In this document: positions 9,138 through 62,403 of the stretch, one piece after another
How positions within the stretch are numbered: the first letter of the stretch is position 1
Layout: each line of letters starts with the position of its first letter
IMG/VR virus record: IMGVR_UViG_3300010938_000026
DNA: 64,000 nt
Direction: 5' to 3' (one strand)
From: an uncultured virus (IMG/VR IMGVR_UViG_3300010938_000026)
Taxonomy: Duplodnaviria > Heunggongvirae > Uroviricota > Caudoviricetes
Made by a program: the position numbers and the translations under genes
The notes under the pieces: model-generated
Told to the model about the DNA's origin: nothing
Seen by the model: only the letters and a program-made list of their open reading frames with translations
Database searches by the model: none

Positions 9138-9157
9138 TTTTAATCACGTGATTAAAA
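9138..9157. promoter_or_regulatory. Dispersed palindromic site TTAATC-N4-GATTAAAA (representative copy)
   Basis: TTTTAATCACGTGATTAAAA; other copies start at about 21994, 31473, 40516, 45069, 45255, 45986, 46548, 48354 and 62381; partial copy at 10898. Confidence 0.8.
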
Positions 9158-9233
9158 AATGTTTCTACATGCCCGGCAAGGTACAATGGGAAGAGGTTCG
9201 TAACGATTGCTGGACACACAAGGAGAATGGCGT

Positions 9234-9518
9234 ATGACCACTGCAAAAATTCGTGAAGACCTGTCAGTCGAACTGGATAACGGCTTTCAGCCAGTTTTCA
9301 AGGTCATAGTCGAGAGTGGCGATCACGGTTCACTCTTAGAGCCGGCGGTCGCGGACATGGTGCGCAAATTCGCTCGGACAAAATACTTGGAAATTGGAAT
9401 GCCTATAGCGCCAACAATCGTAGCCATCAAGAAGGATGGAAGCATGTGGCGTACTGGCGATCCGCCACACGAGGTCGAAAAGTTTCACGCGATCTTTGAA
9501 TGCACCATACGAAGGTGA
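9234..9518 (+). CDS. Hypothetical protein
   Basis: AGGAG at 9221 before ATG 9234; TGATG coupling to the next gene. Confidence 0.6.
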   Translation: MTTAKIREDLSVELDNGFQPVFKVIVESGDHGSLLEPAVADMVRKFARTKYLEIGMPIAPTIVAIKKDGSMWRTGDPPHEVEKFHAIFECTIRR

Positions 9519-9949
9519 TGCCAGACGATCTTTTTCGCACGCTGCTAATTCGCTTATTAGCGCTACCCGTTGGGACCCCTACCATTGTGGCGGAATTATG
9601 TTGCCGTATTGCGACACAGTGGAGCTCCGTGTGTCGTGTCGAACAAGCAGCGGTCGCCTTGACCTTCGCAGAGACGAAAGATGAGCTACTGAAATGTGTG
9701 GAACAAGTGTGTAAAGAACCGCAGCAAGTACGGCTTATCAGCCTCTTGAATAACCGATTTTTGACCTACGGCAGCGAAAAGGCATATGATACGATCATGA
9801 AAGCGTGGGTGCCACTGGAGCAGGTGCTTCCCTCGACCACCATGATACTATCGTTCAATATTGCTGCGCACTGGCATGACATCCAACAGCAGCATCAAGC
9901 TATCCGAAGTCGCCATTCTCACACTGATCAACAGCCCTCTGGCTCATAA
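9518..9949 (+). CDS. Hypothetical protein
   Basis: ATG overlaps the upstream TGA; helical protein. Confidence 0.55.
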   Translation: MPDDLFRTLLIRLLALPVGTPTIVAELCCRIATQWSSVCRVEQAAVALTFAETKDELLKCVEQVCKEPQQVRLISLLNNRFLTYGSEKAYDTIMKAWVPLEQVLPSTTMILSFNIAAHWHDIQQQHQAIRSRHSHTDQQPSGS

Positions 9950-10163
9950 ATACGATTTTCTACGCGACCCGCCAAAAACCGATTCCCGAAGTTGTTGCGG
10001 AGACGGGTATCATATTGATTATGAGGAGATAAACAGGCGCCTCAATCAGCTCAACGACGCCTCTGAGCTGCTGAAATACCTTGAGACGCAATATTTCCGG
10101 GTGGTCTATTCGCACGAGAAGGCCACAATCGAAGTCGCCATGATCCTGGAGTTCCCAAAATGA
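9861..10163 (+). CDS. Hypothetical protein
   Basis: 100-aa ORF, ATGA-coupled to the next gene. Confidence 0.5.
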   Translation: MLRTGMTSNSSIKLSEVAILTLINSPLAHKYDFLRDPPKTDSRSCCGDGYHIDYEEINRRLNQLNDASELLKYLETQYFRVVYSHEKATIEVAMILEFPK

Positions 10164-10807
10164 GTACAGATTTACAGGTTAAGGTGCAGCAGGCGCTGCA
10201 AGATGAGGAAATTACGGCCACACAATTGCTAATTCGCCATCCGGAATTCATGGATGACGACCCGGCGGCCATTGAGCACATGTTCCGACGTTTTGGGTAT
10301 TCTGGGCAGGCATATAACAAGTACATGGCTGGGGTAGAAATAATTAAGACCAACAGGTATTGGAAACACCTGCCGTCTTTCCTGACGCTTGCGCATGCCA
10401 TCACCTACGGTCACGTTTATGCCGGAGAACTGATTATGACCACGATGGAAGCTGCCAGCTGGTCCGTCGTGGAAGCGGTACTCTTATGCCCGGACGTTTC
10501 GTTGGAGGAATGCGAATTTACGAGCGACATCAAAGCGTATATCGTAACCCGTGCTAAATACGAGAACCAGTTCGGCCTAACACTTAGCTCCTTTATTGAC
10601 GACGACGAAATAAAGAAAATTGACTCGCCACACTTGAACACTTGGTTAGTTACCAGGACACAGGAGCTGCTGGGGGCCATTAAAAAGGAATTCAAACGCA
10701 GACGTGAGGAAATCAATTTACAAAGCATCAACGATTTACGCCGGAAACTCTCCCTGGTCTTCCCGCCCGACCTCAAGCTCATCAAGTACCTCGACGCTGC
10801 GACCTAA
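10160..10807 (+). CDS. Hypothetical protein
   Basis: 215-aa ORF; overlaps the convergent minus-strand gene by 72 bp. Confidence 0.65.
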   Translation: MSTDLQVKVQQALQDEEITATQLLIRHPEFMDDDPAAIEHMFRRFGYSGQAYNKYMAGVEIIKTNRYWKHLPSFLTLAHAITYGHVYAGELIMTTMEAASWSVVEAVLLCPDVSLEECEFTSDIKAYIVTRAKYENQFGLTLSSFIDDDEIKKIDSPHLNTWLVTRTQELLGAIKKEFKRRREEINLQSINDLRRKLSLVFPPDLKLIKYLDAAT

Positions 10808-13111
10808 TTCGCGGATCTTCGTAAGTACAGTCTCGGTAATATTACGAGGGAGTACCTCTTCCGCGTATTGAGCCAACTCGTCCTGAGTAATGGAGAATTT
10901 TAATCCTGAGATTATTTTTTGAAGTACGTGAAATCGTGTTTTCAGGCCAGAGACTTTGGCTACTGGATCACGCAGATACACGAACCCTTCGCGCAGCGAG
11001 CGCTTGTGCCCAACAGGACCCTCCATTGCGTTGGCCATGTTGTAGAGAAATGTAGTGATACTCGTGTCACTCGGCTTGAAATCGCTGTAACTCTCAATGG
11101 CCCACGCGAGAAGTGAGCTAAATACCTTGGGCAAACGATCCGCTTGTACCGACGCTGGGTCTATTTGTACCAGCATTACGTTGTGGACGAACGGGTTAAT
11201 CAAGCCAGGCTTACGGAAGAGAACCACGCCAGGGCCGTGCTTCAAGATATGTTCATAAGGTAATTGTAGACTGGCCACAACCAAGGGCCATCCTGGGGCG
11301 TATCTGGATACGACTTGCTCCAGCACCCGATCCGGTTCGTGGCCCAAAATGACATCTATACCGCATTGGGTGAACGCCTCATGCAGGTCACGGGGGAAGA
11401 CATCGGTCAGAATTACCAAGGAATACGGAGTCTTTCCGAGAAGTTGCATCAGTGGAATACCACACAAGGTCAGGGCAAGCCTGGCTGTCTGAACTTCTTG
11501 TTGGGTGTTTAGCGTCAAATACCCGGTATCGTAATTCGCTACAAATTCCGGGGCTGAGGGTATGGTGCAGGCAGACATGGGCGGCCGCCCGGGTTGCAAA
11601 ATTTGGTATTTAAGTCGGATCCCGTCCGGTGTAATGGACGGGACATGTTCTATATGCTGGTTATCCCCGATAAGTACTGCTAGCTCCCAGAGAAGACGCA
11701 GAAATTTTGGATCGTGGCCGATAATTACACGGGGATATTGCTTCAGAAAAGCCATCGGTAATGATGCCATCATGCGCTTCTTAGATGCATTAGGGACTGA
11801 TACATCGAAATTCTGGCCGTATGCCCGGACGGTGAACACATGGCTCGTCGGTGTAACCACTTGTAAAGCCGGGATGTAATTGCTGATGTATGTGTTTTTA
11901 TAAATAATGCCCGATTCCGTGACCTGCACAGTGACGTTAGCCAGCGCCACGTCGCGGTTTAAGAGCGCCTGGAATCGTCCCTCAATACGTTCGTAATAGC
12001 TGGCTAGCCGCGCGAATTCCTGTGTTTTGCTCAGATTTACGGGCAGCGAGAACGGCTGCCGGTGCTTGATCGTGTTGTTGATGAAGTGCAGAATGGTTTC
12101 TGGTGCCTTAGAGAAGTTGATGAGCTCTTGGAGACACGTGGTTGCGTTACGCATGGATACGCCACCAACGTAAGTCCGTGCTCCGATGCTTATGGCATAC
12201 TTGTACCAATGGTAGTCCGGCTGCGGTACATATATGACGAGTGTACGCGAGGTAGCAGGAGCCTCGGTTGTGCTGAACACGTATTTCCGTCCGTTACAAT
12301 ATCCAAGACCGCGGTACGCCAAGAATATGGGCGGTAACTTCCCTACGCCGCAAATACTGCTGGACAAAAGGCTCAGGTAATCTTGGGGAGTGGTGAAGCC
12401 AATCAAGTAATTGTCTATAAGCCGGTTAAATACCCCAGGAACCACAAAATTCGGACAGCCGCCAAGACCGGTACCACGACCGATCTGGCGGGCCGTGTAA
12501 TAGAACGTCTGGCGCGGATTGAAAATTAAAAAACCGCATACCCGTTCGACCGCCGAATAAAATGGCATAACAGCGACCATTTCCGTTCTCAGACTGGTCG
12601 CTGGAAAATCCTCCAGCACTTCGGTGAGTTCAGACACCGGCAGGACCAGCAGGCATTTCTCCACAAGATCGGCATAGGACGGGTCTATGCCCGGAGTTGA
12701 CCACCACGTGGTAATGCTGCGCAGATAAGAACCCACTTTTGCCCGGAAGCGCCGGCGCAGCTCCTCGTAGATTTTCTGCAGGCGGTCGATTTCGCTGGTA
12801 TAACGGGAATACACCTCGAAGTGGTCGGGCGTAATCGGGCGGGCGGTGAGCTTGTTCGTGTTGAAATATTCAGCGGCAACCGTGTAATCCAAATAGCCAT
12901 GCTGCTTGGCCATATCCAAGAGCACCTGAATGGCATCGTCCGTTCGCTTGCAATTAGGACAATGGATTGCTACACTTCCCGAGCACAGGTCTAGGTGTGC
13001 TGCCCCATGACTGTTACAATAAAAGCATGGGATTGCATTAGGAAGAATCCGTTCCTTCGATCCGAGAAATTCGAGGACTGTACCGACATTCAGCTGGATG
13101 GGTAAAAACAT
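10736..13111 (-). CDS. Large protein with N-terminal Zn ribbon and degenerate DnaG/TOPRIM-like region
   Basis: CFYC...HCPNC; VMPFYSAVERVCGF resembles the DnaG core (FPI.d..g.vvGF); IGFTTPQDYLSL aligns with TOPRIM vEG.mD but lacks the Glu. Confidence 0.5.
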   Translation of the reverse strand: MFLPIQLNVGTVLEFLGSKERILPNAIPCFYCNSHGAAHLDLCSGSVAIHCPNCKRTDDAIQVLLDMAKQHGYLDYTVAAEYFNTNKLTARPITPDHFEVYSRYTSEIDRLQKIYEELRRRFRAKVGSYLRSITTWWSTPGIDPSYADLVEKCLLVLPVSELTEVLEDFPATSLRTEMVAVMPFYSAVERVCGFLIFNPRQTFYYTARQIGRGTGLGGCPNFVVPGVFNRLIDNYLIGFTTPQDYLSLLSSSICGVGKLPPIFLAYRGLGYCNGRKYVFSTTEAPATSRTLVIYVPQPDYHWYKYAISIGARTYVGGVSMRNATTCLQELINFSKAPETILHFINNTIKHRQPFSLPVNLSKTQEFARLASYYERIEGRFQALLNRDVALANVTVQVTESGIIYKNTYISNYIPALQVVTPTSHVFTVRAYGQNFDVSVPNASKKRMMASLPMAFLKQYPRVIIGHDPKFLRLLWELAVLIGDNQHIEHVPSITPDGIRLKYQILQPGRPPMSACTIPSAPEFVANYDTGYLTLNTQQEVQTARLALTLCGIPLMQLLGKTPYSLVILTDVFPRDLHEAFTQCGIDVILGHEPDRVLEQVVSRYAPGWPLVVASLQLPYEHILKHGPGVVLFRKPGLINPFVHNVMLVQIDPASVQADRLPKVFSSLLAWAIESYSDFKPSDTSITTFLYNMANAMEGPVGHKRSLREGFVYLRDPVAKVSGLKTRFHVLQKIISGLKFSITQDELAQYAEEVLPRNITETVLTKIRELGRSVEVLDELEVGREDQGEFPA

Positions 13112-20544: not shown

Positions 20545-21998
20545 AAAACATCCCCGATCAGATTTATCCGCAATTCACTAGCGCGCTATCATACGACAAG
20601 ACAGTATATGACTACACAGCGAACTTCCGTGGTGGTAGTATTTCTGCTTCCCAGGTGCGCATAGCCTGCTATAAGAGTCTCCATAAGGATAATCAACCCA
20701 AAGCGATATTGACGCGAGCAGGCTTCCTTACACGTGTCGCTTCGCTGCTTGAAAAGAATAAAGTTCCATTTGATGTGCAGGACCTTTCCACGAATATTGG
20801 TAAATACTTCGTCAATTTAGACGCACTGGAAGGGTACGAATTACGTGATCAACAGGCAGACTGCTTAAAGCAGATTCTGCTCAATAGGGGTGGCATAATC
20901 AAAGCCGCGACTGGTTATGGCAAAACATTTCTAATTCCGCTGATATGCAAAGTTTTCAGCGAAGCTACCATCCATATTGTGACCAAACGTAAGGACGTAG
21001 CTCGCAGTATTGTGCGAGAATGCACATCACATGATGTGAAAGTCGGTCTGATAACATCAGGTCAACCATCTACACCGGGTCGCATTCTTGTCTGTACGGC
21101 TGGTAGTCTGGACAGGACTAAATACGATGCCGATTTGGTTATCTTGGACGAATGTCACGAACTAGTAACGCCACATTACTTAGAAAAGCTGATGCGCTAT
21201 AAAAACGCGCGCTTTTATGGATTTTCAGCTACAGCGGAAGAACGGGCAGATAATGCACATTTCCATCTGGAGCAACTCTGCGGGCCGGTGATATACCGTG
21301 CCGAGTATAAGGAAGTGTGCAAGGAAGGCAATATCGTGCCCATTGTAATCCAGTGGATTCGTGTGCCAGCAGCAGGGGGTATACCTGCGTCCTCACAAAT
21401 GCCCTTTCATTATTTGCGCAAAGCATTGCGCAACAATGCACAGCGTAACAAAACGATCGTTGACGTTGCGCGCAAGTATAAGGACAGCGGTAACCAAGTC
21501 CTGATTATTACGAAAACTGTAGAACATGCATTGCTCCTTGCACGAGACCTACCAGAATTTGAGCTGTGCTGTGGTACATTGACGGATAAGCATCTTCGCA
21601 CGGCCCAGCGTTATCAGATGGATCTGAGCAAACTGCGCCAGAACATAAAGAATCGCAATGATTTAGCCATGGCGTTCCGCAACCGTAGCATCATGGGGGC
21701 TATTGCTACAGAAATCTGGACCACTGGTGTTAGCTTCGATGACTTGGAAGTCCTTATCCGAGCTGATGCTGATACCAGCAAGATTTCAACAGCACAGGTT
21801 CCTGGCCGTGTTTGCCGGCTGCCTCAGAAGACCGACAAGGCATTTGGCTTGGTCGTGGACTTCATTGATGAATTCCACACACAGCTATACGCGCGCTCTC
21901 TGGCGCGTTACCGCACCTACAAAAAGATGGGATGGACGCAATGCGACGAAAATCTGCAACCCATAAGCTCCTTTCCGCGCATTTACACGAAAATTTAA
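20487..21998 (+). CDS. Superfamily 2 helicase (UvsW/ResIII-like)
   Basis: AATGYGKT, DECH, FSAT, TGVSFDDL, QVPGRVCR. Confidence 0.92.
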   Translation: MATMEQRVTVKIRGSWLLVENIPDQIYPQFTSALSYDKTVYDYTANFRGGSISASQVRIACYKSLHKDNQPKAILTRAGFLTRVASLLEKNKVPFDVQDLSTNIGKYFVNLDALEGYELRDQQADCLKQILLNRGGIIKAATGYGKTFLIPLICKVFSEATIHIVTKRKDVARSIVRECTSHDVKVGLITSGQPSTPGRILVCTAGSLDRTKYDADLVILDECHELVTPHYLEKLMRYKNARFYGFSATAEERADNAHFHLEQLCGPVIYRAEYKEVCKEGNIVPIVIQWIRVPAAGGIPASSQMPFHYLRKALRNNAQRNKTIVDVARKYKDSGNQVLIITKTVEHALLLARDLPEFELCCGTLTDKHLRTAQRYQMDLSKLRQNIKNRNDLAMAFRNRSIMGAIATEIWTTGVSFDDLEVLIRADADTSKISTAQVPGRVCRLPQKTDKAFGLVVDFIDEFHTQLYARSLARYRTYKKMGWTQCDENLQPISSFPRIYTKI

Positions 21999-22576
21999 TC
22001 ACGCGATTAAAATTCTCATACGCGTTACACATGGCTGTGCGTGACGAGAACCGTGTCGTGCGCACAGCAGATCCAGACGTCAAGTGGAAAACAGATAATT
22101 CATTCTTGCTGCTGGCCGAAAGGCTACAACGGCAACAGAAGGCCCATGATCCAGAAGGTATTGTGCAAAGCGGCTTTGATGAATTTCCGAAGGGCCGGGT
22201 TTATCCAAACATGCTCCTGAGTGACCGGGTGCTCGCGCGTTATGAGCGCGATTTACCCGGCCGTCTGGAGCGACTTAAAGTCATATTCAAGGTTCACTAC
22301 GAAACCCTGCTGAGTCGTGTCCCGTTGTACACGGACCCAGATCTCACAAGGGAAGACGTCTTGCCGTTATTCGAGAGTATCCACCCCATAATGGCGTGGT
22401 GGGCTGCGAAGGAATTTTTAAGTGGTGGCGAGGACCTTGAAGACTTATTCTGGAATGCTAGGCTCGCATTTCGATTGTGGCCATTCGGTTACTTGACTCA
22501 CCCTGGATGGAAGCAACTGGTGATCGAAGGATGTCTCTATGAGCTTCAACCTTCCGAATCAGGAAGTCCCACGTGA
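21932..22576 (+). CDS. Hypothetical protein (start uncertain)
   Basis: ORF filling the gap between the two helicases. Confidence 0.6.
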   Translation: MDAMRRKSATHKLLSAHLHENLITRLKFSYALHMAVRDENRVVRTADPDVKWKTDNSFLLLAERLQRQQKAHDPEGIVQSGFDEFPKGRVYPNMLLSDRVLARYERDLPGRLERLKVIFKVHYETLLSRVPLYTDPDLTREDVLPLFESIHPIMAWWAAKEFLSGGEDLEDLFWNARLAFRLWPFGYLTHPGWKQLVIEGCLYELQPSESGSPT

Positions 22577-30977: not shown

Positions 30978-31770
30978 TGGCATAGCCATCCGATATGAGG
31001 CATGGGAAAGCATACCTGATCTCTCACGCTGGATAACGCAGTTTATCCATAGATGCGTCGTCCAGCGACTGAACCAGCGTGACCTGTTATTGCGGCCCGG
31101 CACGGTCACCCGTGCCGGGTATCGCTTTACTCAGACCTCAGCGACCCAGCTCCTTCAAATCTCCACGCAAAAAGAACACCGCCATCCGTTCCCGTGGCTC
31201 TCCAATCAGAATATCAACTACCGGATCATGAACATTCTGATCGAGGAAGGATGGCGTAACTTAAGTCCCTACTTCACCTTAATCGACCCGGAAGAAAAGC
31301 TCATCGAGGGTTTTGTCCGAACCACTAAGGACATCCCCAAGTACCTCGTTTCAGCACAGGCTTTGATCCGCGCAGCGGAAATAACCAATACCACAGAAGA
31401 TTTGAAATTGGACCTGTGGTGGGGCTTTCTATGGCACTCGGGCATGTTTATAATTGCCCGTCAGCCCAAAAATTTAATCTTCGGATTAAAATTGGCTTCA
31501 CAGAAAATCGAGGTATCATCCATTGTTAACGAGTACGGACCGACCACCGATTTGAGCGTCTTGGATCGCATCGTCAGGGAAAGGCGAAAATACTGCAACG
31601 CCCGGATCACGTCGGCGCCCGCACTTGTTAAAACAGTACGTGGGGTGTTAGCTAGGTTAGGTGATTTGAGGGAGTTCCGTCATGGCTGGGTCGCTTACAA
31701 GTCAGCAGTCGAGCAACTTGATGAGTCTGGACGATCCAATTCTGGAAAGCCCGGAGCAGGTGATCAGTAG
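30907..31770 (+). CDS. Hypothetical protein
   Basis: 287-aa ORF; contains one copy of the palindromic site. Confidence 0.55.
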   Translation: MERLRWRITTSSSKRYCKVIRIRDGIAIRYEAWESIPDLSRWITQFIHRCVVQRLNQRDLLLRPGTVTRAGYRFTQTSATQLLQISTQKEHRHPFPWLSNQNINYRIMNILIEEGWRNLSPYFTLIDPEEKLIEGFVRTTKDIPKYLVSAQALIRAAEITNTTEDLKLDLWWGFLWHSGMFIIARQPKNLIFGLKLASQKIEVSSIVNEYGPTTDLSVLDRIVRERRKYCNARITSAPALVKTVRGVLARLGDLREFRHGWVAYKSAVEQLDESGRSNSGKPGAGDQ

Positions 31771-40489: not shown

Positions 40490-40813
40490 ATGAAGCAAAT
40501 AAGTATTTACAAGGATTTTAATCCCGTGATTAAAATCGAGGCCGAATCGATGGAGTGGTTACTTGATTGCTTGGTCTGTCTAGGAAAGGCCGCTCGGGAC
40601 GACTTCTTAAACGGCTTGTCCTTTACAGGCCGGAACGGTGTCCTTTATCAGCTCAAGCGGCTAAAACCCAGTGAAGCCAAGCAACTCGGGTCACCTCATG
40701 CTAAGTGGGCTATTGAATCATTTGAGGGATCAATGTTGGAGACGAGGCATTTGTACAAGACACGTAACAGGGCTATGAATGCGTTTTGCGCATTCGCGGG
40801 GGAACTTGCTTAG
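40490..40813 (+). CDS. Hypothetical protein
   Basis: AAAGGAG SD; 107 aa. Confidence 0.7.
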   Translation: MKQISIYKDFNPVIKIEAESMEWLLDCLVCLGKAARDDFLNGLSFTGRNGVLYQLKRLKPSEAKQLGSPHAKWAIESFEGSMLETRHLYKTRNRAMNAFCAFAGELA

Positions 40814-45000: not shown

Positions 45001-45276
45001 CCCTGCCCAACCTCTTAGGGAGTAAAAAACTTAAGGGGACCGGGCAGTTTTCATCTTTTGAATAAAACTTTAATCGCAAGATTAAAATTTTACTACGACA
45101 CAAATAGCCGCCAGTACCCATGATGACAGTGAAAACTAACCAAGAATCCAAACATGATGACAGTGAAAACTAACCAAGAATCTAAACCCTGCCCAACCTC
45201 TTAGGGAGTAAAAAACTTAAGGGGACCGGGCAGTTTTCATCTTTTGAATAAAACTTTAATCGCAAGATTAAAATTT
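45001..45276 (+). repeat. Two identical 90-bp direct repeats (45001-45090, 45187-45276) enclosing a 34-bp tandem repeat (45119-45186)
   Basis: CCCTGCCCAACCTCTTAGGG...GATTAAAATTT twice, 186 bp apart; CATGATGACAGTGAAAACTAACCAAGAATCYAAA twice. Confidence 0.92.
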
Positions 45277-45417: not shown

Positions 45418-45446
45418 ACCAACCATAAAGACAGGAGATTGCCAGA

Positions 45447-46019
45447 ATGTACATCAAAAACAAAAAAGCCCACATCAGCACCAGTACGGTCAGCCCAAAA
45501 TTCATACATATAAAATTCAAGCACACTAAACTGATACTCACAGAAGAGGCACCATACGGGTCAATGCTGGAAGCAGAATACGTCACCAAAAAGGTTAGCG
45601 ATAAATACGTCCCGAAATTGCTGGTCATGACTCATAACGAAAATAACGTAGCCATGACATACGAAAACGCACATGAAATCCTGGACCTGATGATCGAAGA
45701 CCAACGGGAATATGAAGAGGACGAGTCCGCAACCAGATTGAAAATCGAAAAGAACGACTATCTGAACAACGAACACAAAACACTAACACTAAAATACGAT
45801 TGCGCCATTGCTGACCTGCGTAAAGGTAAAATAAACCTGAGAGTCTTGATCACAATGCCAACAATGCGAAGCGGATTACTGGTCGATAAACGCCTGTCTA
45901 AAGACCTGAGAAACTCACACATCGACCTGGATCAATTCACCGTAAGCCCGGAACTACAGCCAGATATCAGGGCCATCGAACGGAATTTAATCACGGGATT
46001 AAAATCCAAAATTCGATAA
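45447..46019 (+). CDS. Tandem-array protein 1 (beta-rich, unknown function)
   Basis: AGGAG SD; 190 aa; IHIKFKHTKLIL. Confidence 0.7.
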   Translation: MYIKNKKAHISTSTVSPKFIHIKFKHTKLILTEEAPYGSMLEAEYVTKKVSDKYVPKLLVMTHNENNVAMTYENAHEILDLMIEDQREYEEDESATRLKIEKNDYLNNEHKTLTLKYDCAIADLRKGKINLRVLITMPTMRSGLLVDKRLSKDLRNSHIDLDQFTVSPELQPDIRAIERNLITGLKSKIR

Positions 46020-46038
46020 ACAGGAAGACAAGAAACTT

Positions 46039-46650
46039 ATGCGCTTAGACAACAGCAAGAAAGGGTTTTGCCTGACCACAACAACAGAACCCAGGACGCT
46101 AAAACTCGAATCCAAAACGACCGACTGCATCATAACCGCGATAGCGGGACGAGAATACATCGAGGCTACCTTCAAAACTCCACAAATCCGCGATACATAC
46201 GTCCCACAATTTAAGACCATAACCGAAGGACGCGTCCGGCAATATGCTGCGTGCTACATTAACGTCAATAAAATCCTGGAAGCAAATCGATTGGCTTATA
46301 ACGACGTGCTCCTTCAAACAAGTAATTACCTGAAAAAGCGGCACATTCTGGTAACTCACCATCAAAACACGATCAGCATTAAAATGTTCGTCGATAACAC
46401 AAGCAAATGCGCGGACATCGCCCTAAAAAATAAAATCGAAATCCGAATCAAGATCAGTAAGTCCGTACGCGACAGCGAAATAATCTTGGGTGAACACAGA
46501 CTCGTCTATAACACCACATCAATACCGAAAACTACCCCATCCCGGAATTTAATCACAGGATTAAAATCCAGCCAGCACGACTCAAATGCAGGAGAACACT
46601 GCTATGATCATTGCAATAGTCGAACCTCCAGAAGGCTACCGCCAGATTGA
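46039..46650 (+). CDS. Tandem-array protein 2
   Basis: 203 aa; LKLESKTTDCII. Confidence 0.6.
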   Translation: MRLDNSKKGFCLTTTTEPRTLKLESKTTDCIITAIAGREYIEATFKTPQIRDTYVPQFKTITEGRVRQYAACYINVNKILEANRLAYNDVLLQTSNYLKKRHILVTHHQNTISIKMFVDNTSKCADIALKNKIEIRIKISKSVRDSEIILGEHRLVYNTTSIPKTTPSRNLITGLKSSQHDSNAGEHCYDHCNSRTSRRLPPD

Positions 46651-47119: not shown

Positions 47120-47120
47120 C

Positions 47121-47693: not shown

Positions 47694-47886
47694 TCCTGCC
47701 GTATCCAGACGACCATCTTAAAACCTTATTCGAATGGAGTACCACCATGCACCTCCGTACCGAAAACTTCCGCTTGAAGGTAGGCGAAACAGGTATCGAA
47801 TGCCCGCTACATTTAGACATAAACCCCTAGCCGACCAGTGGCCCAACACACCAGCAAACCTGACCACAAAAGGAGGTTAACAGGCA

Positions 47887-48357
47887 ATGCAAATAGATGC
47901 TGGAAAAGTCCTGCTGATAGCAGATGTCCTCGGCGTATTCACGTTGCGCGTTGCCAATACCGAACTCCACATAGATGCCAGAGACGGATCGGAAGATACA
48001 CAGCTTATCTACCGAAACTCGATGGCACGAAATCCCTCGTCCATTTGCTTTGGTTTCACCATCAGTGACGCTCAATATTACGAACCCGACTGTGTAAACC
48101 ACCGCCGGCGTCTCATGGTCGAGGACCAGGGAAATACCATAACGTGCCGCAGCGAGGATTACATGGCGCGCCGGCTAACAGAAATATGCTTGGGGCCGGA
48201 CGCGATCAAATGTGCATTCAAATCGGACCGAGGGATTACAGCGTTTCGCCTGTCTTTAGACCATGATCACGTGACCGTCGAAGTGAAACAGAAATTCCAC
48301 CATGTCCATCACACAAAGCAGTTCCTGACTGCACTGAAAAACCGGGCGAAATCTTAA
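47887..48357 (+). CDS. Tandem-array protein 5
   Basis: AAGGAGGT SD; 156 aa; FTLRVANTELHI. Confidence 0.7.
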   Translation: MQIDAGKVLLIADVLGVFTLRVANTELHIDARDGSEDTQLIYRNSMARNPSSICFGFTISDAQYYEPDCVNHRRRLMVEDQGNTITCRSEDYMARRLTEICLGPDAIKCAFKSDRGITAFRLSLDHDHVTVEVKQKFHHVHHTKQFLTALKNRAKS

Positions 48358-48399
48358 TCCTGTGATTAAAATTGTCCTCTAAACCAAGGAGAAAATGCC

Positions 48400-48936: not shown

Positions 48937-48937
48937 C

Positions 48938-49989: not shown

Positions 49990-49999
49990 GGAAGAACCT

Positions 50000-53582: not shown

Positions 53583-53612
53583 GCAATGTCCCTTTCCTAA
53601 TCCGAGGAGTCT

Positions 53613-54703: not shown

Positions 54704-54736
54704 GTCGCGCCTGTTGGACTGGGGAAGGAATTCGCG

Positions 54737-55216: not shown

Positions 55217-55220
55217 TAGT

Positions 55221-55745: not shown

Positions 55746-55779
55746 TGTCCTATAGATTCCCAACCGTAAGGAGGATAAT

Positions 55780-56310: not shown

Positions 56311-56376
56311 GGTGGCGGCCAGCCGGCACAACTACAGCGTAGTTGCAAGTATCAACTTTCCGCTGGAGGATTAAAA

Positions 56377-56910
56377 ATGTGGCAAATTTGTGTGGATAAT
56401 TTATGTATTAACTCATCCCGTACCTGGGATCATAAGCGCCCCAAGAGACATCGAACTTTCGATGGGCGATCAAAAACTATTGAAATCCAAGATCAGCGAT
56501 TTCAAATATGGATACATTCTTCTGGCACGGGACTGGCGGTCTGGGATGATAACCATAACTATGGTGTTGACTGTATCGTGGCAGACGAGAGTGATACTCT
56601 TAGTATGGAAACACGTGTTTGGGATAAAGGTAATCGGCGGGTTCTAGCATCGTACGCTCGAGCGGAGTGTGTTTATTCAATTCATGGCGATCGGGATACC
56701 ACACTCGACTTTTACAATTTCGAAGTCCGCCGGCGCCTCGCTTTAATCTTGCCGGGTAAACATCAGCTCGTTGACCGTGTAATAAAGTTTCTTCGCGGCC
56801 GTTTGAAGATCGCCACGGCAATGCGAGGAGACAGTGTTTGGACAATTAGGTACATCAACTTGTACCCGCCATACCGGCGGATGTGCAAACAAGCTTGGCC
56901 GGCAGAGTGA
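56377..56910 (+). CDS. Tandem-array protein 21
   Basis: GGAGG SD; KTIEIQDQRFQI. Confidence 0.6.
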   Translation: MWQICVDNLCINSSRTWDHKRPKRHRTFDGRSKTIEIQDQRFQIWIHSSGTGLAVWDDNHNYGVDCIVADESDTLSMETRVWDKGNRRVLASYARAECVYSIHGDRDTTLDFYNFEVRRRLALILPGKHQLVDRVIKFLRGRLKIATAMRGDSVWTIRYINLYPPYRRMCKQAWPAE

Positions 56911-56932
56911 GTAACCTCGGAAAGGGCTACAA

Positions 56933-57505
56933 ATGAGATGGAAGATTTATGTCTACGGGTCACTCCTAGGCCGGCGTCACAAATCGGGGATTGATCTTAT
57001 GCGGACGTGGCAATCCGATCGCTGGGCTGTACGCATATACGCTGAGTATCCCTCCTGTTTATCAGTTGACGTTGGTAGCCGCATGCTGAATATTTTGGCC
57101 ACAGGATGCCACTACGAATTGCATACGGGGGCACATTATGTTGCACTGTATGTAGTCCCGCCGGCGACTTTTCAGCATTGTGCCCGGAGGCTGGCGAAAA
57201 GCGCGACGTCTGCGAATTTATTCAGTACGCAGCCGTCTGTTGAGGCGACGGTTCATATGTGCTCAGATCGCCGGCGAAATAACATGATTAAAATGCAGCT
57301 CATTCATGGCAGTTGCTTCAATCAAGAGTTGATCTTCTTTCGTGAACACTTGCGGTTTACCGCACGTTATACGTCGAAATATCAAAAGGTAATGCAAAAC
57401 ATTTATCTGCGACCCTCATGTCGCAATTTATGTCGGCTTCCAAATCAAAAGGAGCAGCGTAATGTCGAAAGCATTGACGAGCATCGTGAGGCGAGTAGGG
57501 CCTAA
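56933..57505 (+). CDS. Tandem-array protein 22 (weak motif; resembles protein 21 at its ends)
   Basis: MRWKIYV vs MWQICV; QNIYLRPSCRNLC vs RYINLYPPYRRMC. Confidence 0.55.
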   Translation: MRWKIYVYGSLLGRRHKSGIDLMRTWQSDRWAVRIYAEYPSCLSVDVGSRMLNILATGCHYELHTGAHYVALYVVPPATFQHCARRLAKSATSANLFSTQPSVEATVHMCSDRRRNNMIKMQLIHGSCFNQELIFFREHLRFTARYTSKYQKVMQNIYLRPSCRNLCRLPNQKEQRNVESIDEHREASRA

Positions 57506-58103
57506 ATACGTGAAAAGGGTCCGTACAGCCATCCAGCAAATTGCCATCCGCGATTTGAGCGTCGACGACCTTGAGACAAAGGTAGACGAGGATGCACAGG
57601 CGCTCACTCCGGATGATGTAACTCTGGATGACGTTCGGAAAGTGGCGGGCTTAGCCATCGTGACGCTTGGCTGGCTGTATGTCAGCTTATTGGGAGATCA
57701 TCCATTTGACTCTCAGAGCTTAGTGGTGAACGGGTTCATGGACGAATTCTACAAACTGCTGGACGAAGATATTCTGGAGGGCAAAAGTGGTCAAATGTGG
57801 CAGCATGTCAGCGCCCGTAACGCGGAAGCAGCCGCCGCATATATGAGCAAACTGGCAGTACAGTTTATTGTCGAATGCTCTGGTATGCTCGTCGATTTCG
57901 ACGCTGACGGTAAAACGTCTATCTCATTGCTGGAAGGCGGGTTCCACCGTCTTCAGCGGGCCTTTGTGATGCTTGCTGCCACCGAAATGTTGCCGGCGCG
58001 CGGCCAGGCATTCGAGGCCGCTCTGCGGAAGCTCGATGAATTGGTCAATCGGTATCGCCGTGGTCGGATCTATATCGAGATGTTAACACCTAGCTGCAAT
58101 TGA
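57462..58103 (+). CDS. Hypothetical helical protein
   Basis: AAAAGGAG SD; 213 aa. Confidence 0.7.
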   Translation: MSKALTSIVRRVGPKYVKRVRTAIQQIAIRDLSVDDLETKVDEDAQALTPDDVTLDDVRKVAGLAIVTLGWLYVSLLGDHPFDSQSLVVNGFMDEFYKLLDEDILEGKSGQMWQHVSARNAEAAAAYMSKLAVQFIVECSGMLVDFDADGKTSISLLEGGFHRLQRAFVMLAATEMLPARGQAFEAALRKLDELVNRYRRGRIYIEMLTPSCN

Positions 58104-58113
58104 GGAGGCACCT

Positions 58114-58674
58114 ATGAAGTACTGTGATTTCTGCTCCTTGTATGACTTAGATGTTGACTCTGAGATCGATCCGAATGCGGAGGTTACAGTTTCCGACCGG
58201 ATTACCGGTGTAACTCATCTCAACGATAAGCTTGAGGGGTTCTCACCTGAAGAGATCTACGATGCTGTGTACGAGGACTACGCGGCTACACAACTGCAAT
58301 TAGAAACATTATGGATCCGTGTGCAGACATTCAAACGCGCCTCTGTCTATGATATGCATGGCAATCTGCGTACGTATAATCTTGACTACGATGAGCGTAC
58401 GGTTGCGGTTCCGCCTGTTGAGCCACCCTGCACCGGTGGCGAGCACGACTGGGAATGGTTCGGTCAAGTGGTCGACTTGACGCCGGCTGCCCGAAACTAT
58501 GTGGTCCGTGGGCCGGTGTATTCTGAACGGTGTCGGAACTGCGGGATGACTCACGTAATTCAAACGGACGTGGACGAGCCATTCTCGTTCCTTCCAGGGT
58601 ATACCCGCGAAGAGTATGGCCCTGTCCAATCCCATAAAGGGGAGACCGACGATGGATCTGGCACGACAGATTGA
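58114..58674 (+). CDS. Hypothetical acidic protein with possible Zn ligands
   Basis: GAGGAGG SD; C..GEHDW...CRNCG. Confidence 0.7.
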   Translation: MKYCDFCSLYDLDVDSEIDPNAEVTVSDRITGVTHLNDKLEGFSPEEIYDAVYEDYAATQLQLETLWIRVQTFKRASVYDMHGNLRTYNLDYDERTVAVPPVEPPCTGGEHDWEWFGQVVDLTPAARNYVVRGPVYSERCRNCGMTHVIQTDVDEPFSFLPGYTREEYGPVQSHKGETDDGSGTTD

Positions 58675-59179
58675 GCGCATCATTCCCCATCGGGTCAGGC
58701 AACGATCCAATCTAAGCTGCGAGTTATATGGATGGCTTGTATTTCAAGGTACTCACATAAATCTTACTAACCGGTACTTTGGGGTGTCCTCGCGTCCCAT
58801 TTCTGAATTTCAAGTTACCAATGTGGAGTTTGAGTTTGAGCTAGTCCGGAACGTTGTCCGCCTGCATCAAAATAGGTCATACAGATCACTCGATCTGGCG
58901 CGGCACTACCTCTCCCTGCAATGTCGGGAGGCTGCGCGTTTTGCCAATGCACGTATGATTTACATCGTGCAAGGTCAGTGCGAAGTAACCGCCCCAAACA
59001 TTTTGATCGCCTTCCGACCTTCGTTCTTTCGAATACGTATCTCTCGCAGGAATTTACCCTCGCTGGAACTTCGATTCCGCACACGCTCATGCTTGCGGAC
59101 GTTACCCGAAGACGCGCGGCAGTTTTTACGATCCACCAAAGTTAACAAACTTGGACGCCGCGGCATAATTTCAGGGTGA
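58652..59179 (+). CDS. Hypothetical protein, possible array-family outlier
   Basis: GGGGAG SD; GWLVFQGTHINL. Confidence 0.55.
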   Translation: MDLARQIERIIPHRVRQRSNLSCELYGWLVFQGTHINLTNRYFGVSSRPISEFQVTNVEFEFELVRNVVRLHQNRSYRSLDLARHYLSLQCREAARFANARMIYIVQGQCEVTAPNILIAFRPSFFRIRISRRNLPSLELRFRTRSCLRTLPEDARQFLRSTKVNKLGRRGIISG

Positions 59180-59190
59180 GGAGGCTAACA

Positions 59191-59712
59191 ATGTCAATTC
59201 CAGCAGCATGGCAGCGGCTCAATGAGAGGAGCCACCAGCGTATCATCCTGAAAAAATGTAGACGTTATCACGTTTACGAGTCCCATGTCGGTGATACGGT
59301 TGCTATCTGGCATCACCAAGATTTATCAGTGCGATGGTATTCGCCAACAAAATGCCGGTTACTCTATTGGCGTATCGCACGCCGTGTCAATGGACGTTCC
59401 GCTTATTCAGGCGACGGGCGTGGCGAGTTACGGTGTTCTCCTAGATATACGAATCACTGGCCCCATAAACTTATTATCTTACGGCCACGTGAAATGGGCG
59501 GCGTGTTGTACATACGGGGCGAGGCTGGCGAGGTTGTTGAAGTAAGGGCAATCCTGTCGCCACCATCTCCCTTCTTAAGCCTCTCGTTACATCGGTATCG
59601 GCGTCAGCGCCGGTCGCGCTCCGACATCTGCGAAGCCGCACTATATTTCCATCCGCGACTATTTCAACCCCAGTTTCACGAGGTAGGAGGAAGTGTATGC
59701 GTCATCCAGTGA
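59191..59712 (+). CDS. Hypothetical protein
   Basis: GAGGAGG SD; about 173 aa; Arg-rich. Confidence 0.55.
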   Translation: MSIPAAWQRLNERSHQRIILKKCRRYHVYESHVGDTVAIWHHQDLSVRWYSPTKCRLLYWRIARRVNGRSAYSGDGRGELRCSPRYTNHWPHKLIILRPREMGGVLYIRGEAGEVVEVRAILSPPSPFLSLSLHRYRRQRRSRSDICEAALYFHPRLFQPQFHEVGGSVCVIQ

Positions 59713-60329
59713 CTGATGAACCGCTGGCTGATAATGCTATCATCCGGACGGACAGGCAAGGCCGTCTTCACTACGCGCGCGGCCCTGAGATTGTCAGTGG
59801 CACGCGTAAGGAATGGTGGGTTCACGGGGTACGGCACCGTGATGGTAATGAACCCGCCATCGAAGATGAGAACGGGCTATATGCCTTCTATGTGAACGGC
59901 CAGCTGCACAGCACTGTCGGTCCGGCGTATGTACGCTACAACGACAACGAGGCGTATGTGGCGCATTACGTCAACGGGAAATTGCAATCTCTCGTTGAGG
60001 AAGGCGTAGTACTGCCCTGTGTTATCGTAGTGCGCCCGCGGGGTTATGTAACCCTGAAATACTATGACGACGGGCTACTGCATCGTGACATCGGCCCGGC
60101 TTTCATGCGGGTTTATAAGGGCCGGCTGATGATGCAAGCCTACGCATATCGCGGAAAACTCCACCGATTGGGTGGTCCGGCTATCATTAACTTGTTCCTT
60201 CGGAAATGCCGGTATTTTATCCAGGGCCGCCCCGTGACGGAGGAGGAGGCAATGGCTGCTTATGTTCCGCCTCCAGCGCTCCAGCAGCAGTCGCTGCAGA
60301 TCACGCGGGCCGTAGTAGCAGGGGACTGA
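59697..60329 (+). CDS. LHRxxGPA-repeat (MORN-like) phage protein
   Basis: RHRDGNEPA, LHSTVGPA, LHRDIGPA, LHRLGGPA. Confidence 0.75.
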   Translation: MRHPVTDEPLADNAIIRTDRQGRLHYARGPEIVSGTRKEWWVHGVRHRDGNEPAIEDENGLYAFYVNGQLHSTVGPAYVRYNDNEAYVAHYVNGKLQSLVEEGVVLPCVIVVRPRGYVTLKYYDDGLLHRDIGPAFMRVYKGRLMMQAYAYRGKLHRLGGPAIINLFLRKCRYFIQGRPVTEEEAMAAYVPPPALQQQSLQITRAVVAGD

Positions 60330-60331
60330 GT

Positions 60332-60973
60332 ATGCCGCCATTGAAACGGATTCACAACATCACGGGCGAAAAGTTAGACGACGATGCCATTGAATTCATC
60401 AAGCAGCCGGAAGGCTGGCTCCATAACGAGGGAGGGCGTCCGTGCATCATGTCTACAGCACTCATCGAATGCCGGGTCATGGGTGTTCTGCACCATGACA
60501 ACGGCCCGGCGCGAGTCACGGACGAGTTGACCGCGGAGTGGTACAACAATGGCCGCCTGCATTCACAAGGGTGGTATTTCGCGAAGGCGAAAGTCACTCC
60601 CCAGGAGCAGCTTTTCGAGTGGTATACGGACGGACTGCTCAATTCACATGAGGACTATCCGGCACGTATACACTTGAAGGGCACCGTGGTCCTGTGCGAG
60701 TGGTACCGAAATGGATTGCAGCATCGAGACAGGTATCCCGCATACCTGTTATACGATGGGCAAGTCCTTAAGGAATTTCGCTTCTATTCCGGCGGTCAGC
60801 TTCATCATGACGAGCATGTCGCTGTCGGCGTACGGCAGGACGATGGCAGCTATCGCGGGGAATACTGGCTGCACGGCCAGCGGTACACTGCCGAAGAATT
60901 TCGCAAGGCGCGATCTATCGTGCGCCGTCGGGTAACCGTTGAAGAGAATAAGGAGGTAAACGTTGTTGACTGA
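60332..60973 (+). CDS. LHRxxGPA-repeat (MORN-like) phage protein, paralog
   Basis: LHHDNGPA, EWYNNGRLH, EWYRNGLQHRDRYPA, EYWLHG. Confidence 0.75.
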   Translation: MPPLKRIHNITGEKLDDDAIEFIKQPEGWLHNEGGRPCIMSTALIECRVMGVLHHDNGPARVTDELTAEWYNNGRLHSQGWYFAKAKVTPQEQLFEWYTDGLLNSHEDYPARIHLKGTVVLCEWYRNGLQHRDRYPAYLLYDGQVLKEFRFYSGGQLHHDEHVAVGVRQDDGSYRGEYWLHGQRYTAEEFRKARSIVRRRVTVEENKEVNVVD

Positions 60974-61643
60974 AAAGCAAGCTGAACATCTGGCTCGTAC
61001 TATCGTTGAGGTGCGAGGCCGTTACGAATCTGCCGTGCGCGGATCACTTCGTTATTTGGCCTTCCATTTGGCGCAAGCGCCCAAGCTCAGTTTGCGGGAA
61101 AAGTGGGATGCTTCATTGATCCTGCACTGGAGTGCCGAATTACTGCCAAGTGTGCGGCGCTTGGACGCGCGCGACATCACGAATTTTGTACCCGATCTCG
61201 ACCATGGGCAGGTTCGTGAAGCTCTGGTCAGTGCTACCGAGCTCGTCGACGGCTGGATCCGGAGTGGGCAGCTGGCCGAGGTGTTATCTGCTGATGAGCT
61301 GGCCAACTCCATGCCGGAATTCTTGCAGCGCTTGCAACAGGCGCTTGAATATTCGGAACATCCAGCATCGGTGCTTTTGGCGTTCTTGTTCGCCGACGGC
61401 ATGCAGGTTTTGTCACGAGCAGCCCCGACCGAACGATTCGACGAGTTTGCTCGGAAGGTCGCCAACTGCGCCCGGGGCCACATGCACCGGTTTGTGCAGT
61501 GCAAGGATGATCTGCTCCCGCTTTGTGTTGGCACGTTGCCACCGCAGGCTAATCTGACCGACCCACGTATGGCGCTGGATTTCATCTACGAATTTGTAGA
61601 AGCAACCCAGGAGGCTACCACGCATGAACCCATCGCAAATTGA
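60963..61643 (+). CDS. Hypothetical helical protein
   Basis: TAAGGAGGT SD with TTG start; 226 aa. Confidence 0.65.
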   Translation: MLTEKQAEHLARTIVEVRGRYESAVRGSLRYLAFHLAQAPKLSLREKWDASLILHWSAELLPSVRRLDARDITNFVPDLDHGQVREALVSATELVDGWIRSGQLAEVLSADELANSMPEFLQRLQQALEYSEHPASVLLAFLFADGMQVLSRAAPTERFDEFARKVANCARGHMHRFVQCKDDLLPLCVGTLPPQANLTDPRMALDFIYEFVEATQEATTHEPIAN

Positions 61644-61935
61644 GCTAGCTATCACGTACCTGGCCCGACGTGACGAGCTGAAGCAGCTCGAAAAGGAGTT
61701 AAAGCAGTTACATGAACGGGTGGTCGCTGAGATTTTTCACGACCAGCCCGGTCGTTTTGTCATTCCGGACATGAACAAAGCCTTGGTGTACGAAGAGGTG
61801 GAGTCCACCCGATTCGATACAGCAAAACTCAAGGCTACCATGCCGTCCTTGTACGCACAGCTGTCTGTGGAGTACAAGTACCGGCGGTTATCTGTAGAGG
61901 AAGGAGGCACGAATGGGAGAAAGCATGAAGACTGA
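61624..61935 (+). CDS. Hypothetical protein resembling the C-terminal part of YqaJ-type proteins
   Basis: Coiled coil followed by STRFDTAKLKATMPSLY...YRRL. Confidence 0.55.
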   Translation: MNPSQIELAITYLARRDELKQLEKELKQLHERVVAEIFHDQPGRFVIPDMNKALVYEEVESTRFDTAKLKATMPSLYAQLSVEYKYRRLSVEEGGTNGRKHED

Positions 61936-62284
61936 GCTGGTTCTGCTCACCCGCGGACATCTAGTGCTCCTCGGCGATGACGGTAAGATTACCGTCCTCG
62001 AACGGGTAAGCCACAAGGTAGTGTATTACGGTGAGCCATCCGGGGATCATCCCCTTTCGGCTGCTGCCAGCCAGATTTACAAACTGGCTGAGGCTCAGCA
62101 GTTGCCTGAGACCCTGCCCATGTGGCACCCCTACCCACATGACGTGCCGACGGTAGAGAACTTCGCTCTGTACGAAGTCCCCGCTGGTACGTTGCCGTCC
62201 CGGGACATTTTCGTCTATTTCCGTGACGCCGTGCGTCGCGCCAAAGAGAAAGGCGCAAGGACACGCGCCAAGCGGAAGAAATAA
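61913..62284 (+). CDS. Hypothetical protein
   Basis: AAGGAGG SD; 123 aa. Confidence 0.65.
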   Translation: MGESMKTELVLLTRGHLVLLGDDGKITVLERVSHKVVYYGEPSGDHPLSAAASQIYKLAEAQQLPETLPMWHPYPHDVPTVENFALYEVPAGTLPSRDIFVYFRDAVRRAKEKGARTRAKRKK

Positions 62285-62305
62285 GATTTTTTTCCTGCGT
62301 CCGCG

Positions 62306-62340
62306 CCCGCACCGCCTTCGCGCGGTGCGGGTATTTTTTT
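62306..62340 (+). terminator. Intrinsic terminator related to the array hairpins
   Basis: CCCGCACCGC-cttcgc-GCGGTGCGGG-TATTTTTTT, preceded by TTCCTGCG. Confidence 0.85.
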
Positions 62341-62348
62341 AGATTTTC

Positions 62349-62357
62349 TGTTAGAAT
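62349..62357 (+). promoter_or_regulatory. Putative extended -10 promoter
   Basis: TGtTAGAAT just after the terminator; palindromic site 24 nt downstream. Confidence 0.45.
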
Positions 62358-62403
62358 GGAGGTGGTTGGGTATCAATAAATTTAATCGCGGGATTAAAAT
62401 GTC

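Follow-up and report, generated by a model that had tools for sequence, protein, structure and literature searches.

Cluster O mycobacteriophages carry a 17-bp dyad repeat, TGTTCGG-N3-CCGAACA, which occurs in 34 copies in Corndog (PMC4351075) and in 31 copies in Ryadel (PMC6439249). These repeats lie in intergenic gaps, at the 5' ends of open reading frames (ORFs) and in ORF interiors or 3' parts, with a few one-mismatch copies, and recombination between copies yields indels among strains (PMC4351075). The authors suggested a dimeric regulator and doubted a simple promoter role, without a demonstrated cognate protein (PMC4351075). Here we describe the palindrome TTAATC-N4-GATTAA, which is dispersed over a 64-kb stretch of DNA from an uncultured virus of the Caudoviricetes (IMG/VR record IMGVR_UViG_3300010938_000026; the whole stretch is referred to as the window). 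The motif exists, occurs far beyond chance, has a dyad with 10-bp half-site spacing and sits at gene boundaries. Our tentative preference is to read it as a double-stranded DNA cis-regulatory site for a putative dimeric regulator that would control transcription; we infer protein binding, the dimeric state and the transcriptional effect alike from the sequence.

Other known systems share parts of this logic. The stoperators of Cluster A mycobacteriophages, recognised by the L5/Bxb1 repressors gp71/gp69, are asymmetric 13-bp sites of a monomeric repressor in temperate phages. Their dispersed, near-identical copies lie mostly at gene boundaries, are oriented with transcription, and are proposed to block elongation as well as initiation. 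On the ~60-kb replicon RK2, 12 copies of the OB operator, a 13-bp palindrome, are bound by the ParB-family regulator KorB; some copies lie at promoters and others are distant, and one dimeric protein acts globally. Among phage promoters, those of the T7 type span 23 bp and are not palindromic, and the hairpin promoters of the giant N4 virion RNA polymerase have a 5-7 bp stem and a 3-nt loop with conserved bases.

The dyad and its copies

The window contains ten exact copies of TTAATC-N4-GATTAA, whereas 100 dinucleotide-preserving shuffles produced none at all (mean 0.00, maximum 0). This confirms the count given in an earlier note on this DNA, which also had all ten spacers right; its sites are correct, with coordinates that were 0-2 nt off because flank bases had been counted. 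On the + strand, AAAA follows 3' of the core in 10/10 copies and AAAAT in nine, the exception being the copy at 9140, which has AAAAA. When one mismatch is permitted, the AAAA-extended pattern finds a single additional match where 0.04 are expected. This is a minus-strand copy at ~10900, so that the partial copy previously placed at 10898 is real. A position-weight scan added a second one-mismatch copy at 6297. The copies, together with three hairpins that stand upstream of them, are listed here; each exact copy begins at the start of its core.

9140..9158, + strand: exact copy, spacer ACGT; left flank fully symmetric, right flank AAAAA; inside ORF 8992-9237 (81 aa), peptide FNHVIKK, 97 nt before the stop
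21995..22013, + strand: exact copy, spacer ACGC; the helicase gene 20487-21998 terminates at the first TAA of the motif
31474..31492, + strand: exact copy, spacer TTCG; inside the conserved 269/287-aa ORF 30907/30961-31770, where it encodes NLIFGLK
40518..40536, + strand: exact copy, spacer CCGT; perfect palindrome with 10-bp arms; 28 nt into ORF 40490-40813 and 40 nt past the stop of the preceding gene
45070..45088, + strand: exact copy, spacer GCAA; non-coding; 22 nt after the T-run starting at 45048
45256..45274, + strand: exact copy, spacer GCAA; non-coding; duplicate of 45070 (repeat 45001-45102 / 45187-45288)
45987..46005, + strand: exact copy, spacer ACGG; within the final 11 codons of gene 45447-46019; the ATG at 46039 follows after 34 nt
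46549..46567, + strand: exact copy, spacer ACAG; in the tail of ORF 46039-46650; paralogous to 45987
48354..48372, + strand: exact copy, spacer CTGT; gene 47887-48357 terminates at the first TAA of the motif
62382..62400, + strand: exact copy, spacer GCGG; 48 nt past the strong hairpin 62305-62332 and its T7 run; abuts the ATG at 62404 of a + strand poly-Ser ORF and overlaps the stop of the alternative minus-strand ORF 62394-62894
6297..6315, + strand: degenerate copy TTGATC-CTCT-GATTAAAGT; 97 nt into the sigma-factor gene
10897..10915, minus strand: degenerate copy ATAATC-TCAG-GATTAAAAT; within the minus-strand gene 10736-13111, towards its 3' end
45003..45059, + strand: hairpin (-21.8 kcal/mol) and T-run, directly upstream of 45070
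45189-45245, + strand: identical hairpin and T-run, preceding 45256
62305..62340, + strand: hairpin (11 pairs, 9 of them GC) and T7 run, upstream of 62382

When the copies are aligned, the full element is a dyad of 22-24 bp, R-A-W-T-TTAATC-nYRn-GATTAA-A-A-T-Y. All 12 core positions of the hexamer arms are identical in the ten exact copies, the arm centres are 10 bp apart, and the spacer is variable. Within the spacer, the central dinucleotide is pyrimidine-purine in 9/10 copies (CG in five, CA in three and TG in one) and the outer bases are free. Dyad symmetry reaches flank positions +/-1, +/-3 and +/-4. The only asymmetric position is +/-2, where the right side has A in 10/10 copies, completing GAT-TAAAAT, and the left side has the symmetric T in 3/10. 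The earlier note had also seen an argument for a dimer site in spacers that are reverse complements of each other, but the two pairs of this kind are within chance (P(>=2) = 0.14). Lone half-sites are not enriched (44 observed, 20 of them in full sites, versus a shuffle mean of 37), and the dyad is the sole strongly over-represented motif of the window.

Two pairs of copies arose by duplication, which leaves about eight independent sites: 45070 and 45256 are duplicates inside a 102-nt direct repeat, and 45987 and 46549 occupy equivalent positions in two paralogous genes (28% identity). The cluster of copies previously described at 45-48 kb is thus present, and is in part a product of these duplications.

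Coding does not account for the motif. The peptide NLIxxLK is found in four ORFs, as had been claimed (at 31474, 45987 and 46549, and at 21995 provided that the ORF from 21932 is real), FNxxIK is encoded at 9140 and 40518, and the stop codons at 21998 and 48357 do lie inside motif copies. In a codon-preserving shuffle of the gene models (n = 300), 2-5 sites were left versus ten observed, and the survivors were essentially the four copies outside the shuffled genes. As the coding copies are lost in these shuffles, the motif is not explained by protein sequence or codon usage. The members of the cluster of ORF 30907-31770 are 96-98% identical along their full length, so the conservation of NLIFGLK is uninformative. 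A homologue with 60% identity to the ORF at 46549 stops just short of the motif peptide.

Placement, orientation and possible function

For the eight independent copies, the median distance to the closest gene start or stop is 30 nt, compared with 173.5 nt for random positions (P = 0.002; gene boundaries were taken from codon-usage-scored gene models). Five copies (40518, 21995, 46549, 48354 and 45987) precede the next start by 14-37 nt. At 46549 the starts of gene 46586/46604-47119 follow after 19-37 nt, and at 48354 the Shine-Dalgarno sequence (SD) and GTG (48400) of the next gene come 27 nt past the motif. The ORF around the 9140 copy overlaps the next gene, at 9234, via ATGA. The 10900 copy is near the convergent junction with the + strand gene 10160-10807, and 62382 is also a convergent-junction copy if the minus-strand ORF 62394-62894 is real. 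No copy is found at the divergent junctions 15895/16129 and 62894/62993.

Three copies (45070, 45256 and 62382) lie 22-48 nt after strong hairpins that are followed by T-runs. The + strand of the window has nine such elements (T-run starts at 34965, 36036, 38247, 39849, 42333, 45048, 45234, 45410 and 62334; -21 to -35 kcal/mol), so that the motif follows three of the nine at this distance, and the minus strand of the window has none of comparable strength. After the T-runs at 36036, 38247, 42333 and 45410, the SD and ATG of the next gene come within ~10-30 nt. This means that these four elements are intercistronic rather than operon ends, and it implies read-through, attenuation or antitermination. 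A degenerate copy of the motif, TTCATCTTTTGAATAA, lies 20 nt upstream of 45070, and ~90 nt beyond 45256 there is a strong hairpin (45367-45406) with a T8 run from 45410, followed by the SD and ATG of gene 45447. The earlier note had proposed a promoter just upstream of 62381; a sigma-70 scan found none there, and the site is instead the one that follows the hairpin at 62305-62332.

We favour a dimeric regulator because it covers the dyad, the 10-bp geometry, the pyrimidine-purine centre, the boundary bias and the mixed contexts at once. The Cluster O dyad repeats are a precedent that speaks for the same reading. The geometry is typical of a dimeric operator of the helix-turn-helix type. The reader would be a homodimeric, sequence-specific DNA-binding protein, encoded by the phage or, less likely, by the host, and possibly encoded outside the window; a single such regulator would serve roughly a dozen gene-boundary sites. 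Where a copy heads a transcription unit, the bound protein may occlude or recruit RNA polymerase. Candidate sites of this sort are those after the hairpins with T-runs at 45048, 45234 and 62334 and those 14-37 nt before the starts at 46039, 46604 and 48400; in these, the downstream half GAT-TAAAAT could double as a -10-like hexamer. At a gene end or convergent junction (21995, 10900 and possibly 62382), the protein might instead form a boundary or a roadblock to elongation.

Several observations weigh against such a regulator. When the copies are viewed in gene orientation, the downstream half-site is better kept in eight, the upstream one in one, and one is tied (p = 0.039); the minus-strand copy at ~10900 obeys the same downstream-half rule. 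A symmetric operator alone would not predict this inequality. Between six and seven copies lie within coding sequence, and at 31474 the nearest gene end is ~200 nt away. Among DNA-binding families (helix-turn-helix, ParB and others), scans of the window ORFs (33 + 46 + 14 ORFs against Pfam, 48 against PHROGs and 70 against NCBIfam) matched only the sigma factor at 6200-6946, so the earlier statement that no cognate protein is evident holds. No repressor or integrase family matched among the window ORFs scanned, and Atlas look-ups of two small proteins beside the motif returned nothing. These negatives cover the window, which is part of a 74.4-kb source contig (protein cluster record). Finally, the three relatives found through the TerL protein (G001-G003, see below) have 0 copies of the motif even at one mismatch and no analogous over-represented palindrome, and the motifs that are repeated in two of them look like promoter or leader elements. 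In G002 this is an asymmetric motif of ~20 bp, ctcTAATAGCGaTAaCAg, present in 19 places on both strands and 17-22 nt before an ATG in four of them; one subclass contains the 10-bp palindrome ATAGCGCTAT. In G001 (58-61 kb) it is the asymmetric GCAGAAAGCAG, which lies 4-5 nt before an ATG in 4/6 copies and before a GTG in a fifth, and some of whose copies are preceded by CCGTTACrTATAACC. These motifs of the relatives raise the prior for a role of the dyad in the transcription-initiation apparatus of the phage group.

The main rival explanation, which the earlier note did not include, is that the ~22-bp element may by itself be a promoter specific to this phage, belonging to an early or middle class. 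It would be recognised directly by RNA polymerase, be it the host core joined by the phage sigma factor (6200-6946) or an unseen phage polymerase, and no separate dimeric factor would be involved; TAAAAT would be the -10 and transcription would start ~7 nt downstream. We regard this as less likely than a dimeric regulator. In 8/9 informative sites it is indeed the downstream side that holds the better-kept half, whose invariant A completes TAAAAT, and a promoter would suit the copies that follow hairpins with T-runs (45048, 45234 and 62334), the 14-37 nt between five copies and the next start, and gene 45447, for which there is no room for another promoter after the T-run at 45410. Five copies head a 17-kb array of small co-oriented ORFs. 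Many phages place early promoters at the head of small-ORF arrays. No competing promoter signal emerged either: besides the SD, no other upstream motif is enriched in the window, and sigma-70-type promoters are not above shuffle expectation (25 vs 25.9, 14 vs 20.5 and 1 vs 3.0 in the three of four 20-kb parts scanned, 20001-40000 being left out), with no match of the sigma-70 consensus at motif sites in these parts. The asymmetric motifs before ATGs in G002 and G001, and the sigma-factor gene that G002 and G003 share with the window, point in the same direction.

However, perfect dyad symmetry is, to our knowledge, not a feature of sigma-dependent or T7-type promoters. The -10-like TAAAAT is present in 9/10 copies without a conserved -35 at 16-18 bp upstream, and the TTAATC arm is just 7 bp away from it. 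A motif search and inspection of the aligned flanks found no conserved -10 or -35 partner upstream or downstream of the dyad, and the information content upstream is below 0.7 bit per position. The two divergent junctions, where promoters are needed, lack the motif, whereas copies near convergent junctions (10900 and possibly 62382) would yield antisense RNA. The copy at 40518 lies 28 nt into a gene that has a strong SD, 62382 leaves 4 nt between TAAAAT and the ATG at 62404, and 9140 and 31474 are inside genes with no start nearby.

Co-orientation with transcription at gene boundaries is also what a signal in RNA would show. RNase III sites of T7 are co-oriented and lie at gene boundaries. As RNA or single-stranded DNA, the motif forms a 7-bp A/T stem with a 4-nt loop, which in polycistronic transcripts might be read by a phage or host protein as a processing site, a boundary or stabiliser of messenger RNA, or an antitermination signal. 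This is unlikely in our view. Over the 11 copies compared, 4/12 pairs never vary, two pairs carry double changes, and the core arms have two single changes: the A to G change at 6297 retains a G-U pair in + strand RNA only, and the change at 10900 leaves the pair open. The flank pair at +/-4 is A-U in six copies and G-C in three, two of the loops (UUCG and GCAA) are stable tetraloops, and the many strong intercistronic hairpins of this genome would need read-through. On the other hand, covariation does not exceed that of shuffles (the score of 0.085 was attained by 114/500, and the paired fraction by 256/500), position +/-2 is unpaired in 8/11 aligned copies, and the other 7/9 distinct loops are not stable tetraloops. 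Twelve invariant arm positions in the ten exact copies would be unusual for a signal of structure only; arm invariance is to be expected from base-specific reading of the duplex and is neutral as to structure. At 37 C the hairpin has a predicted energy of -2.3 to -7.1 kcal/mol; at 55 C this shrinks to between -0.3 and -3.0, and at 65 C to between 0 and -0.8, which would be marginal for a hot-spring host. As the stem is A/U-rich and no T-run follows it, the motif is not an intrinsic terminator, and the terminator-like hairpins of the genome are elements distinct from it. Rfam has no match for the motif or for the region 44886-45446.

More broadly, the dyad could act through its shape, as an extruded hairpin or cruciform in DNA or as an RNA stem-loop read with transcription. 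We hold this to be improbable as well, although the bias in orientation, the G-U-compatible change at 6297 and the alternation of A-U and G-C at +/-4 leave room for it. The motif would then represent a new class of phage promoter that depends on structure, or the site of a phage-encoded, sequence-specific factor for RNA processing or antitermination, with whose help polymerase might read through the nine strong hairpins with T-runs.

The phage, its relatives and its strains

The window is phage DNA. Besides the sigma-70-family factor, it encodes a baseplate-J-like protein, a large terminase (on the minus strand), SbcCD-like proteins, helicases, a primase, a RecA-like protein, an AAA ATPase, and DUF932 and GP88 proteins. 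Its family-A DNA polymerase (24966-27848) has an N-terminal UDG-like (uracil-DNA-glycosylase-superfamily) domain and a 3'-5' exonuclease domain. The phage itself is novel and largely uncharacterised. A near-identity search of the regions 20-32 kb and 44-50 kb against GenBank phages gave no match, tblastn found only matches of 22-26% identity for PolA and none for the sigma factor, and IMG/VR scans with PolA, DUF932 and P0007 gave no relative. TerL retrieved only three relatives from IMG/VR (G001-G003), which are 38-42% identical. G002, a complete genome of 224.5 kb, shares the sigma-factor, SbcCD, helicase, polymerase and RecA-like genes; G003 shares the sigma factor and the AAA ATPase; and G001 shares the SbcCD, helicase, polymerase and RecA-like genes, with no sigma factor in its fragment. 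The sigma-factor gene (low-score SigB/F/G-like, RpoD-like) stands beside that of a 570-aa protein in the window (4476-6946), in G002 (59982-62485) and in G003 (42405-44722).

The pattern of the motif was also searched in other genomes. Among the matches listed from IMG/VR (80 of at least 119) and from GTDB genomes (80 of at least 120), there was one per contig, mostly in A/T-rich genomes. We treated these single matches as chance, and among those listed there was no lead to a host or prophage. A metagenome scan with the GP88-like protein yielded two short contigs, neither of which reaches a motif copy. In a search of sequencing runs for this lineage, no RNA run was among the matches listed.

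Contigs of closely related strains were found in four hot-spring metagenome runs from three studies; they cover 31-50 kb of the window at ~88-95% identity, with 2221 differences, of which 40 were listed. As close relatives occur only in hot-spring runs, the lineage lives in hot springs. Whole genes are missing or replaced among the strains (39861-40501, 45214-46032, 47697-47867 and 48886-49440): gene 39939-40478 is swapped for 58 nt, and gene 45447-46019 is absent together with the second repeat unit. This indicates that the region is probably a mosaic, accessory one. Some indels end at or near motif copies. The right end of 45213>46033 (819 nt) abuts 45987, 39860>40502 stops 16 nt short of 40518, and 46577>46655 begins 10 nt past 46549; in two runs, contigs can be aligned through 46549 while the following 72-77 nt cannot.

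Such breakpoints would suit a DNA site without a role in transcription, such as a parS- or KorB-like loading site, a hot spot of replication or recombination, or the target of a nuclease or recombinase. A 16-bp palindrome in ~10 copies, many of them in genes, is also reminiscent of chromosomal parS. In Cluster O, recombination between repeat copies has been reported (PMC4351075). We nevertheless think that a role of this kind is quite improbable. Gene boundaries tolerate indels anyway, each indel has only one end at a copy, and no ParB, recombinase or nuclease candidate was found among the scanned ORFs. The boundary bias (P = 0.002) and the orientation bias (p = 0.039) are not predicted, which weakens the parS, nucleoid and origin or packaging options raised by the earlier note, while its operator or roadblock for a dimeric protein on double-stranded DNA stays best supported.

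The gene 185 nt upstream of 45070 encodes a 300-aa TnpB-like (TnpB/Cas12f-like) protein (43983-44885), with a zinc-ribbon/TNB domain, an RD-NAA-N RuvC-III motif and an N-terminal part far shorter than that of solved TnpB. The ends of IS200/IS605 elements are subterminal hairpins. The copies could thus be hairpin ends of the IS200/IS605 type, REP-like relics or targets of the TnpB-like protein, but an origin from a mobile element seems very far-fetched. No TnpA/Y1 transposase matched among the scanned ORFs, coding copies are in frame inside conserved ORFs and do not disrupt them, the variable spacer is incompatible with guide pairing, and no 16-mer of 44890-45315 occurs elsewhere in the window beyond the motif arms and chance-level matches. 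RNA-guided targeting by the TnpB-like gene is disfavoured, as there are no guide-like matches in the rest of the window. IS200/IS605 ends and REP fare no better: no Y1 transposase or RAYT was found in the scanned ORFs, and the six to seven copies in ORFs are not extragenic.

The 560-nt non-coding stretch that follows the TnpB-like gene (44886-45446) folds better than shuffles (z = -4.85). It comprises the two 102-nt repeat units, each with a hairpin and T-run, a degenerate motif and a perfect motif, as well as a 34-nt tandem repeat (45119-45186), and it closes with a strong 13-bp hairpin and a T8 run, directly followed by the SD of gene 45447. The stretch has the appearance of two small RNA units or of a leader under regulation. 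Between 44 and 48 kb, A is strongly over-represented on the + strand (AT skew 0.25). Next comes the array, ~30 consecutive co-oriented ORFs at 45447-62284 of 156-255 aa, most of them 170-195 aa, none of which has a Pfam, PHROG or NCBIfam match. Mutual similarity was detected only for 45447/46039 and 59697/60206 (BLAST) and, weakly, 47887/48400 (hhalign); the hhalign comparison of the ~180-aa ORFs covered 302 of 528 pairs and gave two weak pairs.

Other features of the window lie further from the dyad. A second repeat family, CGCTCCTGCGCAAGCCCG, has four copies, at 39624, 39739, 39797 and 42281. The last copy of each group enters a duplicated 52-nt terminator with a UUCG loop (39807-39858 and 42291-42342, 92% identical), and the annotated ORF 39653-39919 is probably non-coding. 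The region 62404-62900 is a low-complexity repeat that reads as ~80 consecutive serines on the + strand or as the acidic E/L/D repeat EELELLDEEELL on the minus strand. Runs of 10 N interrupt otherwise open frames at 1983-1992, 2235-2244, 8961-8970 and 27806-27815. A search for tRNA genes in the window found none.

Relation to known systems

In this lineage, for which hardly any annotated relatives exist, the dyad alone stands out as a strong repeated signal, which makes it the best handle on how gene expression is organised in this phage. Finding its factor would give a function to at least one of ~60 uncharacterised proteins and define a co-regulated gene set. It could also bear on a question that has stood since the Cluster O repeats were described, namely why phages scatter invariant dyads, even within genes. 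A full-text literature search for the TTAATC and GATTAA palindrome gave nothing relevant among the matches listed, and broader searches, including passages of the P23-45 preprint, found no precedent for a palindromic promoter. We conclude that the motif is a real, lineage-specific, dispersed dyad signal, and that it adds one more instance to a known type of feature rather than a new principle.

Stoperators, KorB OB sites and phage promoter sets share a logic with the motif, and each has at least one defining feature that is lacking here. Like stoperators, the copies keep one orientation relative to transcription and lie at gene boundaries. Unlike stoperators, they form a near-perfect dyad, and the scanned window ORFs have no repressor, integrase or other sign of lysogeny. 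As with parS and KorB OB, the site is a palindrome of 13-16 bp in ~10 copies, whereas the scanned ORFs have no ParB/KorB-family match, the replicon is a phage and not a plasmid, and the sequence is unrelated. Phage promoter sets resemble the motif as ~20-bp elements repeated ~10 times, co-oriented with genes, placed at the heads of gene blocks and specific to one phage. The promoters of N4 differ from it in that the loop here has 4 variable nt and none of the window ORFs was recognised as a large polymerase.

Among described phenomena, the dyad repeat of Cluster O comes closest; the motif is an analogue of it and not a member. The two have in common invariant inverted-repeat arms around a short variable spacer, many copies within one phage lineage, positions in gaps and at ORF ends, a few one-mismatch copies, and strain indels at copies. 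They differ in sequence, which is A/T-rich here and unrelated to the G/C-rich repeat of Cluster O, and in architecture, with arms of 6-10 bp and a 4-bp spacer with a pyrimidine-purine centre. The density is also lower (~12 per 64 kb versus 34 per ~70 kb), and the motif has a mild orientation bias, whereas none was reported for Cluster O. The host and phage lineage are unrelated as well, since the dyad described here belongs to a hot-spring phage that encodes its own sigma factor.

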